From contig CAZOVA010000001.1 of the NCBI GenBank assembly GCA_964583625.1, positions 159,349-223,348 on the forward strand: a DNA stretch of 64,000 nt. Reading direction: 5' to 3'. This stretch comes from an uncultured Pseudomonadales bacterium (GTDB lineage: Bacteria > Patescibacteriota > Microgenomatia > UBA1400 > PJMF01). Below are positions 23,586 through 27,635 of this stretch, in pieces. The position numbers were made by a program, and so were the translations under genes. The notes beneath the pieces are model-generated. The model was not told the DNA's origin. It worked only from the letters and a program-made list of their open reading frames with translations, and searched no databases. How positions within the stretch are numbered: position 1 is the first letter of the stretch; every line of letters starts with the position of its first letter.

Positions 23586-23948
23586 TTAGTTTTCACTTTC
23601 CACTCGATCAACCACTGTTTTGCAATAAAGATATTTACTTTTATCGACTATTTTTTCCGCTAGATCTTTATTTTCGCCAGCCCGACTAGCTTCTTCATTG
23701 ACAGCTCCTAAATTTTGCCAGAGATTTTCCCCTCTTTGTGTTACATTCTTCAAACCACTACCAAAATTATCCATAAAGTTTTCTACTTGCTGTTCGTCAA
23801 CATTAAATTGCATACTTTTGCCACTTAGGCTAGCGAGAGGGAGAGAAACACAAGAACGTAGTTCTTTTTTAGTAAAAAAGTGATAGCCAAAAAATAATAC
23901 CAAAGCCAGTAAAACAATTTGCAAAATAAATCGAAAAATTTTTAACAT
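23586..23948 (-). CDS. Small N-terminally membrane-anchored hypothetical protein
   Basis: Single N-terminal TM, then a hydrophilic 95-aa domain. Immediately downstream (same strand) of the pilin-like array. Confidence 0.45.
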   Translation of the reverse strand: MLKIFRFILQIVLLALVLFFGYHFFTKKELRSCVSLPLASLSGKSMQFNVDEQQVENFMDNFGSGLKNVTQRGENLWQNLGAVNEEASRAGENKDLAEKIVDKSKYLYCKTVVDRVESEN

Positions 23949-23960
23949 ATGCGTTTTTAT

Positions 23961-24329
23961 TTAGAAACCAGGGTTGAGCTCATCAATACCTGCCACTCCT
24001 AAAACCAACTTCCACAAAGCAAAAGCAGAGGCAGTAATCAAGAGACCGATGGCAGCATAAACCATTCTGTCTCTTCCGACTGTCTTTTTACTGGTTTCTC
24101 CCGAAGAAGTGATTAGAGTGATTCCTCCCCAAATTAAAAAGAAGAGGGAAGTGACAGCTGCTCCAAAAAATATCAATTGGGCAATTTTTCCTACTAAGAT
24201 AGCCCAATTAATTGTTCCATCACTATAAATTCCGCCCGCTCCTTGGAGCAAGCTACTTCCTTCACCGCCAATTTGACCCAAAAGAACCTCATTTTCTTCA
24301 GCTTGTATGTCTTTTATTAAATTAATCAT
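23961..24329 (-). CDS. Pilin-like two-helix hairpin membrane protein, paralog 1 (TrbC/VirB2-type topology)
   Basis: ~40-aa hydrophilic N-terminus, TM1, basic loop (SSGETSKKTVGRDR), TM2, C-terminal ...ELNPGF. Shares N-terminal (L)IKDIQAEE and C-terminal LNPT motifs with the neighbours. Confidence 0.6.
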   Translation of the reverse strand: MINLIKDIQAEENEVLLGQIGGEGSSLLQGAGGIYSDGTINWAILVGKIAQLIFFGAAVTSLFFLIWGGITLITSSGETSKKTVGRDRMVYAAIGLLITASAFALWKLVLGVAGIDELNPGF

Positions 24330-24346
24330 TTTTACTCCTTTACTTT

Positions 24347-24721
24347 TTACTCAATAGTTGGGTTCAAGATAGCATCTGGACTGCCAAATAAAGCATTGCC
24401 TATCCAGCCAGCAATCATCCAAGCGGAAGCGACCAAAAGTAAACCCAAAGTGGTCCAAAGAATTCTTTTCATTTCTTCGGAAAAAACTTTTGGATCTCTT
24501 GCTCCTTGAACAATTTTTAAACCAGAAGTAATAATGGTAAAAAGAAACCAAATGCCAGCAATGACAGTTGCTAGTCCTAAGGCATTGTTGACAAAATTAA
24601 TTGGTCCTGTCAATTTCCCACCTTTTTCAATATCATCATAAGTATAGCCACCTCCTATTGGATCAATGGATCCAAAGATAGAACTTTCTGTAGCTTGAAT
24701 AGTTTTAATTAAGTTTAACAT
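24347..24721 (-). CDS. Pilin-like two-helix hairpin membrane protein, paralog 2
   Basis: Same architecture. Loop motif SGLKIVQGARDPKVFSEEMKRIL is shared nearly verbatim with paralog 3. Confidence 0.6.
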   Translation of the reverse strand: MLNLIKTIQATESSIFGSIDPIGGGYTYDDIEKGGKLTGPINFVNNALGLATVIAGIWFLFTIITSGLKIVQGARDPKVFSEEMKRILWTTLGLLLVASAWMIAGWIGNALFGSPDAILNPTIE

Positions 24722-24733
24722 ATTTTTTATTCC

Positions 24734-25405
24734 TCAAATACTGCCTCTTTCTTGTGTTTTTCCTGGCCCCTTGATAGTGGGCTTGAGTAAGAAATCTTCT
24801 TCACCATAGAAGGTTTTACTCACAAAGCCAACAATGATGTAAGCGAAAACTATTAATAATAATCCCAAAGAACTTAATAATAGACGCTTCATATTTTCTC
24901 CAAAGTTTTTTGGGTCTTTACCGCCGATGATCACTTGCACACCAGACCAAAGCATGATGATCAGTAAAATACTAGCGGTAATGATTACCAGAAAATTAAT
25001 GATTTTATTAATAAAAGGAGTAATGCCTGATAAACTTTGAAAGTCGGTGGCTGTTCCCTCTACGGGAGTGATTTGTCCATAAACATAATCACCATCTAGT
25101 GTTGGATTGACTTGATCTAAACAAAACCTAGTTTTTCTATAGGTAATTCTACCATTTTCCCTACACGAAACATTAATATCAGTATAGTTAGGATAACCAG
25201 CGCTACAATCCCCACTTTCATCAGGGCAACGAACATGGTCCTTAAGAGAGGCCGGAAAGGAAGCTGTAATTTCAGCGCAAAGATCTGGATCATCACAGTT
25301 TCTGAATGAACCCGTTCCCGTACCCTCTTCATTAAGAGAAAAGACTTTTCCATTAGCGATGAAGAAGAAAATAAATATCAATGAAAAAATAATGCTTTTT
25401 TTCAT
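24734..25405 (-). CDS. Pilin-like hairpin module fused to a signal-peptide-led Cys-rich N-terminal ectodomain, paralog 3
   Basis: Signal peptide MKKSIIFSLIFIFFFIANG. ~130-aa ectodomain with 7 Cys. C-terminal module WSGVQVIIGGKDPKNFGENMKRLL...LKPTIKG. Confidence 0.6.
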   Translation of the reverse strand: MKKSIIFSLIFIFFFIANGKVFSLNEEGTGTGSFRNCDDPDLCAEITASFPASLKDHVRCPDESGDCSAGYPNYTDINVSCRENGRITYRKTRFCLDQVNPTLDGDYVYGQITPVEGTATDFQSLSGITPFINKIINFLVIITASILLIIMLWSGVQVIIGGKDPKNFGENMKRLLLSSLGLLLIVFAYIIVGFVSKTFYGEEDFLLKPTIKGPGKTQERGSI

Positions 25406-25770
25406 AAAGCCTGGACTCCTGTAACTGTTTCAATAATTCTCACTATCCAATAAGCGGCTAACATAATCATTAAACCAATCACTCCAGTAGTCAAATATTG
25501 TCGCGTACTTTCTAGAGCTTTGGATTTATCCTTCATAAAAATCAACTTATATCCAGAAAAGAGAATTAAAGCAAAAAACAAAATACCGCCCAACATAATT
25601 AAGTTTTTAGCAATGATATTAATCATTGAGCCAGTACTACTATATACAGATCTAACTCTAGTGCCAGCAGTTTGATTGAGGAGAAAATCATTAAAATATT
25701 CATAGGTCTCACTATTGGCAGTAGGGGGGCCGATAGTGGCTTGAGCGGTAGCTTGAATAGCTTCTGTCAT
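25402..25770 (-). CDS. Pilin-like two-helix hairpin membrane protein, paralog 4 (identical to paralog 5)
   Basis: 122 aa. TM1-FSGYKLIFMKDKSK loop-TM2. ATGA-type overlaps with neighbours at both ends. Confidence 0.6.
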   Translation of the reverse strand: MTEAIQATAQATIGPPTANSETYEYFNDFLLNQTAGTRVRSVYSSTGSMINIIAKNLIMLGGILFFALILFSGYKLIFMKDKSKALESTRQYLTTGVIGLMIMLAAYWIVRIIETVTGVQAL

Positions 25771-26135
25771 AAAGCCTGGACTCCTGTAACTGTTTCAATA
25801 ATTCTCACTATCCAATAAGCGGCTAACATAATCATTAAACCAATCACTCCAGTAGTCAAATATTGTCGCGTACTTTCTAGAGCTTTGGATTTATCCTTCA
25901 TAAAAATCAACTTATATCCAGAAAAGAGAATTAAAGCAAAAAACAAAATACCGCCCAACATAATTAAGTTTTTAGCAATGATATTAATCATTGAGCCAGT
26001 ACTACTATATACAGATCTAACTCTAGTGCCAGCAGTTTGATTGAGGAGAAAATCATTAAAATATTCATAGGTCTCACTATTGGCAGTAGGGGGGCCGATA
26101 GTGGCTTGAGCGGTAGCTTGAATAGCTTCTGTCAT
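25767..26135 (-). CDS. Pilin-like two-helix hairpin membrane protein, paralog 5 (100% identical copy of paralog 4)
   Basis: Identical 122-aa translation. Part of an exact 365-bp tandem duplication. Confidence 0.55.
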   Translation of the reverse strand: MTEAIQATAQATIGPPTANSETYEYFNDFLLNQTAGTRVRSVYSSTGSMINIIAKNLIMLGGILFFALILFSGYKLIFMKDKSKALESTRQYLTTGVIGLMIMLAAYWIVRIIETVTGVQAL

Positions 26136-26224
26136 AAAGCCTGGACTCCTGTAACTGTTTCAATAATTCTCATCTTTTTAATTATATCATCTTTTACTTT
26201 TTTATACATTAAATATGCTTTTTG

Positions 26225-27022
26225 CTATTTGTTTAAGTAAAAATAAATTATTAATACCAATAATAAGCCCAAAGCGCCAATTATCAAATTTCTGCGGTCG
26301 GGGAAAGTGGTTCTATCTTTATTTTTTACTGAGATTAGTTTATAAGTGGAAAAAAGAACTAAGATAAAAAACAAAATCCCGCTGAAGAGAAGAAAATTTT
26401 TAATTGCATTATTTTCCGTCTGGCTTAGATTTTGGTTTTGAGTCGTGATTGTTTTTTCATCGTCTTTTAGTTCAAGACTGTCGTCATCATCGCTCTCTTG
26501 AGAAGCAACTAAATTAATATTAATATCAGAAATAGAGGACTCAGTGGCTGTGAGATCAGAAGTAGAAACGGGTGAGTCAGCAAAGACAATATTATTTTTA
26601 CCCACCAACTCTTGACAATTGTCGCTATCACATCTTTTTGTGTCAGCGCACCAGGTAGAAATTTGTGGACCAGTTTTAAGGCATTGATTAAAATTTAAAT
26701 TCGGATTACAGGAAAAGTCTGTTTTTTCAGTTCCATCATTAATCTTAGTTAAACATGAACCTGAGAAAAAGTCGATTGGCATCTCCATAATGGCATCCGT
26801 TTTTTGACATAAATCACTGTTCTCTTTGTATTCTCCCTCTAGTGGTGAGTCTAAAAATGAACTCTCGCAAAAAATTTTCATTTGTTCGCAATTATCCTCT
26901 CCAGAGGATTTATAACAAAGATTATATTTAAGACAGGAACAGCTATTTTCTGCTCCCACTATTGAGATTTTCACTAAATTTAGAAGAAAAATTAAAACCA
27001 AAACACTTAAAAATTTTTTCAT
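26225..27022 (-). CDS. Pilin-like hairpin module fused to signal-peptide-led Cys-rich plus acidic Ser/Asp-rich ectodomain, paralog 6
   Basis: Signal peptide. ~14 Cys in the N-terminal domain. Acidic low-complexity linker (SQESDDDDSLELKDDEK). C-terminal FSGILFFILVLFSTYKLISVKNKDR...GALGLLLVLIIY. Confidence 0.6.
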   Translation of the reverse strand: MKKFLSVLVLIFLLNLVKISIVGAENSCSCLKYNLCYKSSGEDNCEQMKIFCESSFLDSPLEGEYKENSDLCQKTDAIMEMPIDFFSGSCLTKINDGTEKTDFSCNPNLNFNQCLKTGPQISTWCADTKRCDSDNCQELVGKNNIVFADSPVSTSDLTATESSISDININLVASQESDDDDSLELKDDEKTITTQNQNLSQTENNAIKNFLLFSGILFFILVLFSTYKLISVKNKDRTTFPDRRNLIIGALGLLLVLIIYFYLNK

Positions 27023-27083
27023 TTTTACTTTTTTATATCTTTATAATCGTCTTTTCTTCTTTTATACCTTATAATAATCTCTA

Positions 27084-27635
27084 ATGTCAAGAGGGCAAAA
27101 AATCTTTACTGACGAAAAAATTTTGCTAGCCTCTCTACGCGCTGGTGACAGCGCAGCAGTAGAGTACTGGTATCGTCAATACAGCGCTCGTTTAACCGCT
27201 TTTATTCAGGCAAAAGTGGGTTCAACTCATGACGTTCAGGACTTAACTCAAGAAACTTTCATTTGTTGTCTTCAGAACTTGCATAATTTTTCTGGTCATA
27301 GTCGCTTGTGGACTTGGATGTGTGCCATCGCCAAACATGAAGTAGCGGATTACTATCGCAAGCTTTATGCTAAAAAAGTTTTAAAACTCCTTCCATTATC
27401 GGACTTTCTGACTCAGGTAGAACTTTATGACTCGACAGAGTTGGCTGAAAAATTGGAATATGTTTGGCAAAAAATTGGCGCCCACTATAAAGAATTACTT
27501 TTAGAAAAGTACCTTGATAAACATCAAGTCAAAGAAATGGCGCGCGCGCGCGGTAAAACAGTCAAGACAATTGAAAGTGAGCTTTGGCGCGCGCGCCAGG
27601 CTTTTAAGTCAGCTTACCGTGAACTTGAGGATTAA
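27084..27635 (+). CDS. ECF-type sigma-70 family sigma factor
   Basis: Region 2 (DLTQETFICCLQNLHNF) and region 4 HTH (VKEMARARGKTVKTIESELWRARQAF). 183 aa. Divergent from the pilin-like array. Confidence 0.75.
   Translation: MSRGQKIFTDEKILLASLRAGDSAAVEYWYRQYSARLTAFIQAKVGSTHDVQDLTQETFICCLQNLHNFSGHSRLWTWMCAIAKHEVADYYRKLYAKKVLKLLPLSDFLTQVELYDSTELAEKLEYVWQKIGAHYKELLLEKYLDKHQVKEMARARGKTVKTIESELWRARQAFKSAYRELED

Follow-up and report, generated by a model that had tools for sequence, protein, structure and literature searches.

A probable recent tandem amplification of the first gene of a VirB2-like pilin operon in a Patescibacteria genome

Arrays of VirB2-like pilin genes are widespread in bacteria of the candidate phyla radiation (CPR). 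A survey of 3,035 CPR genomes reported 441 VirB2 arrays of 2–11 genes, most abundant in Microgenomates and Saccharibacteria, with an identity between members of the same array that averaged 25% and did not exceed 54% (bioRxiv 10.1101/2025.01.22.634366). The same work found a pilin gene near virB4 in 1,135 of 1,948 assemblies, and cites both a pilin array without which one cultivated Saccharibacterium cannot live as an epibiont and the tandem amplification of virB2 in Bartonella and Anaplasma (10.1101/2025.01.22.634366). Here we describe an array of this known type on contig CAZOVA010000001.1 (assembly GCA_964583625.1, GTDB class Microgenomatia), within a stretch of 64,000 nucleotides, hereafter called the window, in which two adjacent genes encoding a 122-aa protein are identical at the DNA level. 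We consider it probable, at roughly 70%, that the pair arose when the gene heading a chromosomal pilin operon of VirB2-like (PF18895) type was amplified in tandem, to two copies or more, in a genuine and recent event confined to this lineage. A pair that is 100% identical lies outside the range of identities given by the survey and would represent the birth stage of such an array.

The repeat is exact. Tandem Repeats Finder, run on 20–32 kb, returned positions 25402–26172 as one head-to-tail array with a period of 365 and 2.1 copies (2.11 units of 365 bp), 100% matches, 0 indels and a score of 1542, and string identity and self-BLAST gave the same feature. In a direct string test, the unit at 25402–25766 equalled that at 25767–26131 letter for letter, and the 41 nt at 26132–26172 equalled both 25402–25442 and 25767–25807, the identity breaking off sharply at 26173 and at 25401. 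Self-BLAST of the whole window aligned 406 nt at 100% within the array and found no other internal repeat of at least 80 nt. An exact repeat of 771 nt cannot be due to chance. Two open reading frames (ORFs) of 369 nt on the minus strand translate to one identical 122-aa protein, namely the upstream copy (25767–26135, here copy 2) and the downstream copy with the same product (25402–25770, here copy 1). The ATG of copy 1 overlaps the TGA of copy 2, and its own TGA overlaps the ATG of the next gene, which encodes 223 aa; the period is 365 and not 369 because the two ORFs share the 4 nt of this ATGA. Hence, the exact 365-bp duplication with two identical 122-aa ORFs announced by the original prediction was confirmed by Tandem Repeats Finder, string comparison and translation, the strand and the ATGA overlap being added precision. 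The partial third copy was found as well, but it comprises 41 nt at 26132–26172 and not about 40 nt at about 26131.

The exact 122-aa protein is on record in three contigs, which bear on whether the duplication is real. One of them (L001; European Nucleotide Archive, ENA, ERZ28614939, 2809 bp) is colinear with positions 27414–24606 of the window and contains the same two units and the same 41-nt piece; it differs from the window by 5 single-nucleotide polymorphisms (SNPs), all of them outside the repeat and in the next gene (25160–25321). Another (L002; ENA ERZ15185696, 960 bp) begins in the upstream gene, crosses one unit together with the 41-nt element and stops after the first 6 nt of the next unit. 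Since these last 6 nt read CAGAAG, as at the start of a unit, and not AAAAAA, as at the start of the 223-aa gene, this contig holds a unit-to-unit junction (...GCTTTATGACAGAAGC, preceded by ...TGGATAGTGAGAATT). A one-copy genome has no join of unit end and unit start across the 41-nt element, so that at least two copies are present in at least two samples. The recurrence of this novel head-to-tail junction in the independent assembly L001, and its presence in L002, show that the duplication is genuine. A pure assembly artefact, in which the graph loop of a genome with one copy (1.1 units) was walked twice, had also been considered at the outset. De Bruijn loops can indeed be over-traversed when k is 41 or less, and the window stems from a metagenome-type assembly. 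However, the succession of unit end, 41-nt element and unit start was found in all three contigs, from at least two independent samples and in one case together with the 5 SNPs, and for any k above 41 a genome with 1.1 copies does not contain it. The wrong doubling of a single copy is thus largely excluded, L001 having the same 2.1-copy structure and L002 crossing the junction, and we hold this explanation to be very improbable.

Comparison with related loci places the event late. A first-pass protein search returned six sequences only, the nearest non-identical ones being 61–62% identical at the protein level, and a profile search added more. The orthologous gene (family 1) is single-copy, encodes a signal peptide and comes first after a sigma factor gene in five syntenic genomes or contigs (L003/L007, L004, L005/L006, L046 and L047/L048), in which it joins the next, Cys-rich pilin gene by an ATGA overlap or, in L046, abuts it. 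In a sixth locus (L045) the gene is also single and carries a signal peptide, but lies downstream of another pilin gene. One copy in 6/6 related loci, five next to the sigma factor and one elsewhere, is what a lineage-specific amplification would leave, and supports the very recent amplification that had been proposed from the window alone. Concerted evolution, with gene conversion keeping the two members of an old duplication alike, could give the same picture, since the strains of the window and of L001 both have the duplication, with no difference between the copies in either, and recA is present in the window. Against such an origin, all related genomes examined have one copy, and not one base differs, even in the 41-nt partial copy that does not code for pilin, the identity ending abruptly without decayed edges; moreover, an older 265-aa paralog at the same locus has diverged to 43% identity and was not homogenised. 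Gene conversion of an old pair therefore appears quite improbable, and we retain a recent amplification as the preferred reading. Among the 33 related loci examined, only L039 (CAZTBN010000006.1) held another recent duplicate, at 1075–1445 and 1599–1969, with 97.6% identity over 371 nt and a spacing of 524; that genome is a distant relative within the Patescibacteria, and the gene concerned is another PF18895 paralog, one with a signal peptide.

The label ‘pilin-like’ that the 122-aa protein had received is sustained at the profile level. Aligned by hhalign, a profile of its orthologues (A1) matched the PF18895-positive 124-aa paralog of the window with a probability of 77% and an E value of 2e-5 over 72 columns that span both helices, and a profile search with A1 retrieved 14 proteins carrying precomputed PF18895 domains. 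The protein has the two hydrophobic helices and the short positive loop of the family: hydropathy delimits segments 48–80 and 92–116, and AlphaFold2 (23 sequences) predicted a helical hairpin (46–78 and 82–117) with pLDDT values of about 81–89 and an overall mean of 71, the N-tail being poorly defined. The inter-helix loop contains four K/R and two D/E residues and the N-tail is acidic, a charge pattern that in the model fits the N-out, loop-in topology of VirB2. Two further searches gave candidates that we rejected, LNS2 as a spurious match and the only one that Pfam returned for the 122-aa protein alone, and innexin and CXCR4 as mere noise in a sequence-profile search of the PDB. Taken together, these data suggest a divergent member of the VirB2-like/PF18895 superfamily at the profile level, not a Pfam-threshold member; presumably it would be transcribed, translated and used as a pilin.

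The unit that was duplicated is only part of the gene found in relatives. A hydrophobic N-terminal signal peptide is present in 13/13 of the closest homologues (P0002–P0014), some of which add a Cys-rich domain, whereas the window protein begins without any hydrophobic segment that could serve as a signal or leader peptide. The repeated unit starts where the signal peptide of the relatives ends (MTEAIQA...), and it is a 5′-truncated gene, because its N-terminus, MTEAIQATAQATIGPPTAN, lines up with the stretch of P0004 in which the signal peptide gives way to the mature part (LLIKQTAALELGEPTAT). The duplicated units might be non-functional debris, that is, truncated, signal-peptide-less pilin fragments en route to decay. 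The contrast with the 13 homologues is in line with this idea, as is the fact that the promoter-proximal ATG now begins an ORF of only 13 codons. On the other hand, both ORFs are intact, each is preceded by AGGAG 10 nt upstream and coupled through ATGA, the distribution of charges suits the topology of VirB2, and pilins with a short leader are conserved in arrays. Patescibacteria further removed from this genome (L017, L018 and L020) have short-leader orthologues of the 122-aa pilin gene, and the 124-aa and 122-aa short-leader paralogs of the window have orthologues in L003, L046 and L047. Debris thus appears unlikely. Short-leader members are common and conserved in these arrays, and the 5′ truncation as such does not make the 122-aa gene a pseudogene.

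Such members have no hydrophobic N-terminus (they begin with MLNLIKTIQA, MFNLISKVQA, MKLQLIPQAYAQ and others). A motif of 7–12 residues, M-x-x-L-[IL]-x-x-[IV]-Q-A or variants ending in AYAQ or LIAQ, recurs at the N-terminus of many PF18895 proteins encoded in arrays, where it replaces the signal peptide; examples are the genes at 24347–24721 and 23961–24329 of the window and at 7110–7484 and 7498–7854 of L003, besides those at many other loci. This motif looks like a conserved short leader or a processing site.

The 41-nt element that closes the repeat deserves closer attention. It reads TGAGAATTATTGAAACAGTTACAGGAGTCCAGGCTTTATGA, corresponding to the last 12 pilin codons (RIIETVTGVQAL) followed by the ATGA stop/start overlap, and the string test located it three times, ahead of copy 2, of copy 1 and of the 223-aa gene. 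The three cistrons consequently have an identical translation-initiation region, with an AGGAG Shine-Dalgarno (SD) sequence 10 nt before the ATG of copy 2 (26146–26150, minus strand) and the same sequence at 25781–25785 for copy 1 and at 25416–25420 for the 223-aa gene. Orthologues retain both features, the overlap at ATGA and, within the C-terminal codons, the motif ACAGGA(G). RNA folding of the leader and of the junction gave weak structures (−12.7 and −19 kcal/mol) and no obvious hairpin sequestering the SD in either.

Upstream of copy 2, the A that precedes the partial copy creates ATG AGA ATT ... TTA TGA, a mini-ORF of 13 codons (MRIIETVTGVQAL*; 26132–26173, minus strand) whose stop overlaps the ATG of copy 2. 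Seven nucleotides upstream of its ATG, at 26181–26189 on the minus strand, lies a predicted promoter, TGATATAAT, which by sequence is a perfect extended −10 element. The same element stands 6–7 nt before the ATG of the first gene in L003, L004, L005, L046 and L047, and the promoter region of about 50 nt aligns between the window and L003, L004 and L047, and less well with L046. Given that both the position of TGATATAAT and the surrounding region match those of the orthologous gene in relatives, the ATG of the mini-ORF is the ancestral pilin start codon, now fused to the partial third copy. A consensus promoter scan missed the extended −10, since it demands a −35 hexamer, and its match count was no higher than in shuffled sequences; for that reason the promoter call rests on conservation across genomes. 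Across the window, −10-like hexamers pile up 5–10 nt upstream of start codons (12/47 genes in six offsets, against about 0.6 per offset elsewhere), and an SD-like motif occurs in 13/47 genes only, mostly internal genes of operons. On both grounds the first cistrons in this genome are probably leaderless. The spacing between TGATATAAT and the mini-ORF, with the −10 placed as a leaderless start would have it, likewise implies a putative leaderless transcript. As a wider observation, the clustering of −10 elements in 12/47 genes and the 13/47 genes with SD-like motifs suggest that leaderless mRNAs are the rule for first cistrons here; we found nothing in the literature on leaderless translation in Patescibacteria.

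The layout of the operon allows an earlier event to be recognised. On the minus strand the order is a divergent sigma factor gene, a 265-aa gene, a spacer of 89 nt, copy 2, copy 1, the 223-aa gene, the 124-aa gene, a 122-aa paralog and a last gene encoding 120 aa. The sigma factor gene (27084–27635, plus strand) is of the extracytoplasmic function (ECF) type, matches Sigma70_r2 in Pfam and is by synteny a conserved neighbour of the array. The 265-aa gene (26225–27022, minus strand) encodes a signal peptide, a Cys-rich region, an acidic linker and a pilin hairpin, and appears to be an older duplicate of the first gene with its promoter region. In the pilin domain it shares 43% of residues with the 122-aa protein, compared with 24–31% for homologues from other genomes. 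The spacers between the sigma factor gene and the 265-aa gene, and between the stop of the latter and the mini-ORF, both align with the single spacer that separates the sigma factor gene from the first gene in relatives, the downstream one being better preserved, and the 15-nt sequence TATAAAAAAGTAAAA occurs exactly twice in 64 kb, at 26192–26206 and 27023–27037, in equivalent positions of the two spacers and 831 nt apart. From the 43% identity, the homologous spacers and the shared TATAAAAAAGTAAAA, it is likely that the first gene and its promoter had been duplicated once before, and that the upstream copy then diverged. Downstream of the repeat, the 223-aa gene (24734–25405, minus strand) encodes a Cys-rich PF18895 pilin with a signal peptide (28.9 bits, cut-off 26.6); its ATG lies within the ATGA that ends copy 1, and the junction sequences reveal that the duplicated unit took over this ATG to start its own translation frame. 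The remainder of the operon (23586–24721, minus strand) comprises the 124-aa (PF18895) and 122-aa short-leader paralogs and the conserved 120-aa last gene; L003, L046 and L047 have orthologues of these genes arranged in this order.

As to the mechanism, unequal crossing-over within the family had been put forward as plausible, a proposal that the data do not support. The different paralogs have no usable nucleotide homology with one another (BLASTN finds nothing and the longest match is 16 nt), and we therefore rejected an exchange between them as the origin; apart from the 41-nt element flanking the unit, there is no substrate for recombination. We also rejected a mobile element, there being no transposase, no inverted repeats around the unit and a uniform GC content of 0.31–0.41. 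The following order of events, like the dosage effect that could ensue, was reconstructed from sequence comparison. The unit would be the part of the ancestral gene that extends from the last residues of the signal peptide to the ATGA shared with the next gene. In a first step, the older duplication of promoter and gene would have produced the 265-aa paralog. Secondly, an illegitimate join of the terminal ATGA to the T2 codon (ACAGAAGC), near the end of the signal peptide, might have generated a truncated second copy in frame. Thirdly, a deletion through TGA microhomology, from the ancestral ATG(A) to GTG(A)GAATT of the first copy, could have removed the signal-peptide-bearing copy, so that the mini-ORF and a single unit remained (1.1 copies, with the 41-nt direct repeat on either side). 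Finally, the 41-nt repeats, or whole units, would have undergone slippage or an unequal exchange that gave 2.1 copies; the deletion and the expansion may also have occurred in the reverse order, via three copies. Every new copy would thereby take the ATG of the downstream gene as its start and the last 12 codons of the pilin, with their AGGAG, as its ribosome-binding region, while upstream of the array the conserved, putatively leaderless promoter and its start codon would now be fused to those 12 codons, giving the mini-ORF of 13 codons, which stops at the ATG where the first full copy starts. The expected outcome would be a higher dose of the short-leader pilin subunit, and exact 365-bp repeats would be expected to keep expanding and contracting.

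Some observations weigh against this reading and need to be set beside it. The first concern the number of copies (two, more than two or a mixture), as counted in assembled contigs. L002 possibly derives from the data set of the window itself, and the Logan contigs carrying the exact flanking proteins (L040–L044, from many runs) all end 30 nt into the 41-nt element; these are uninformative on copy number, because unitigs with k = 31 are expected to break at the repeat. There is thus some chance, which we rate as modest, that the copies were mis-counted or vary, with three or more units, or a population mixing one, two, three and so on, the assemblers having given the shortest path that fits the junction. 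A 365-bp unit exceeds typical short reads, making the counting of loops by assemblers unreliable, exact tandem repeats are recombinationally unstable, and the assembly graph is ambiguous at this place, every Logan contig stopping in the 41-nt element and L002 ending 6 nt into the second unit. Nevertheless, two assemblies from different samples and strains each arrived at exactly 2.1 copies, and a miscount would alter how many copies there are but leave the finding the same in kind, which we continue to read as an amplification to at least two copies. Other points concern the family. Taken alone, the 122-aa protein has no match to PF18895 or PF04956 at E ≤ 0.1 in Pfam, and its orthologues P0002, P0003, P0004 and P0006 reach 14–19 bits for PF18895, where the cut-off is 26.6, P0005 having no match. 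Foldseek against the PDB gave no match at E ≤ 0.001, VirB2 and archaeal pili being not significant; among its low matches were the Agrobacterium T-pilus (8exh, 8cue and 8fai) and the Aeropyrum conjugative pilus (8dfu), with E values of 4–6 and TM scores of 0.34–0.60. A Pfam scan that covered only the ten largest ORFs of the window found no gene of the type IV secretion system (T4SS) machinery, such as virB4 or virB6. The loss of the signal peptide could also mean loss of function. Lastly, the databases searched contain no genome of intermediate divergence, for which reason the order of the rearrangements, at least three events, is a reconstruction. A scan of Joint Genome Institute (JGI) metagenomes with the 122-aa protein gave 281 pattern matches, none of them a relative.

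The neighbouring genes present features of their own. The 5 SNPs between the window and L001 fall in a 162-bp stretch (25160–25321) of the 223-aa gene (24734–25405, minus strand), and all five are amino-acid replacements. At 90% clustering, the 223-aa protein comprises eight variants, polymorphic at residues 29 (T/P/L), 35, 44, 45, 48 and 82 in the Cys-rich ectodomain and, in addition, at 193 and 204, and the neighbouring 265-aa protein is invariant across 29 contigs. The variation of the 223-aa protein looks like strain-level diversification of an exposed, pilin-associated domain. The 265-aa ORF, its TAG and the mini-ORF share one frame, and the source gene call at 2–589 of L002 (195 aa, partial) follows the 265-aa frame through the TAG (window 26225–26227) and the spacer as far as the TGA of the mini-ORF; this call is probably an artefact of the gene caller. 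The 3′ part of the sigma factor gene (27535–27605) contains two alternating (GC)n runs, GGCGCGCGCGCGCGG and GGCGCGCGCGCC, which form an inverted repeat 25 nt apart and encode ARARG and WRARQ in a genome of about 35% GC; the same region was also flagged as terminator-like.

We would go one step further only tentatively, the proposal being rather doubtful as yet. The locus might be a live snapshot of how CPR VirB2-like arrays are born and of how short-leader pilins originate. In such a scenario the ATGA and the SD sequence within the conserved C-terminal codons (E-T-x-T-G) could constitute a portable 41-nt cassette that makes any tandem copy ending there translatable, and a coupled amplification of variable copy number could tune the dose of a pilus subunit in an episymbiont. 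Apart from this scenario, two features are informative. The junctions reveal a simple route by which a copy would be expressible from birth, namely the ATG of a neighbour together with the C-terminal SD sequence of the pilin itself, and the locus documents how a pilin with a signal peptide became one with a short leader. In practical terms the finding is of modest use: the region flags a spot where short-read assemblies mis-count, and is a candidate locus for copy-number variation among strains.

Several known systems can be set beside this locus. In Neisseria, the pilS cassettes are silent, without promoter, ribosome-binding site or start codon, and serve as gene-conversion donors for type IV pili. 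The window resembles them in having pilin copies devoid of the 5′ leader-coding part beside an expressed locus; unlike them, its copies have a start codon and an SD sequence, are identical to each other and belong to a VirB2-type family. A mechanistic parallel is the classical tandem amplification of bacteria studied in Salmonella and Escherichia coli, in which recombination between short direct repeats is followed by RecA-dependent expansion and contraction, exact tandem repeats being recombinationally unstable. The exact head-to-tail repeat bounded by a short (41-nt) direct repeat, the n.1 copies and the presence of recA all conform to that scheme, and the duplication-amplification is mechanistically ordinary. 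The special trait here lies in the short repeat, which doubles as a translation-coupling element made of C-terminal codons, SD sequence and ATGA, and each unit would consequently be born with a start codon and a ribosome site. The T4SS loci of Bartonella and Anaplasma likewise have several tandem VirB2 paralogs from local duplication, but those paralogs have diverged and are read as antigenic or host-range variants, whereas the copies in the window are identical, so that any effect can only be one of dosage. The VirB2-like arrays of CPR bacteria (PF18895 T4SS_pilin / PF04956 TrbC) are the kind to which this locus belongs, and it shares with them tandem small genes for two-helix pilin-like proteins, with and without Cys-rich ectodomains, and a chromosomal location amid housekeeping genes in a Microgenomates-like CPR genome. 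It departs from them in that the duplicated member falls below the Pfam cut-off when taken alone and in that the pair is 100% identical at the DNA level, as against a maximum of 54% in the survey. Arrays described so far are of old date and their members have drifted apart, to 54% identity or less, and the exact duplicate in the window would show the first step of that path.

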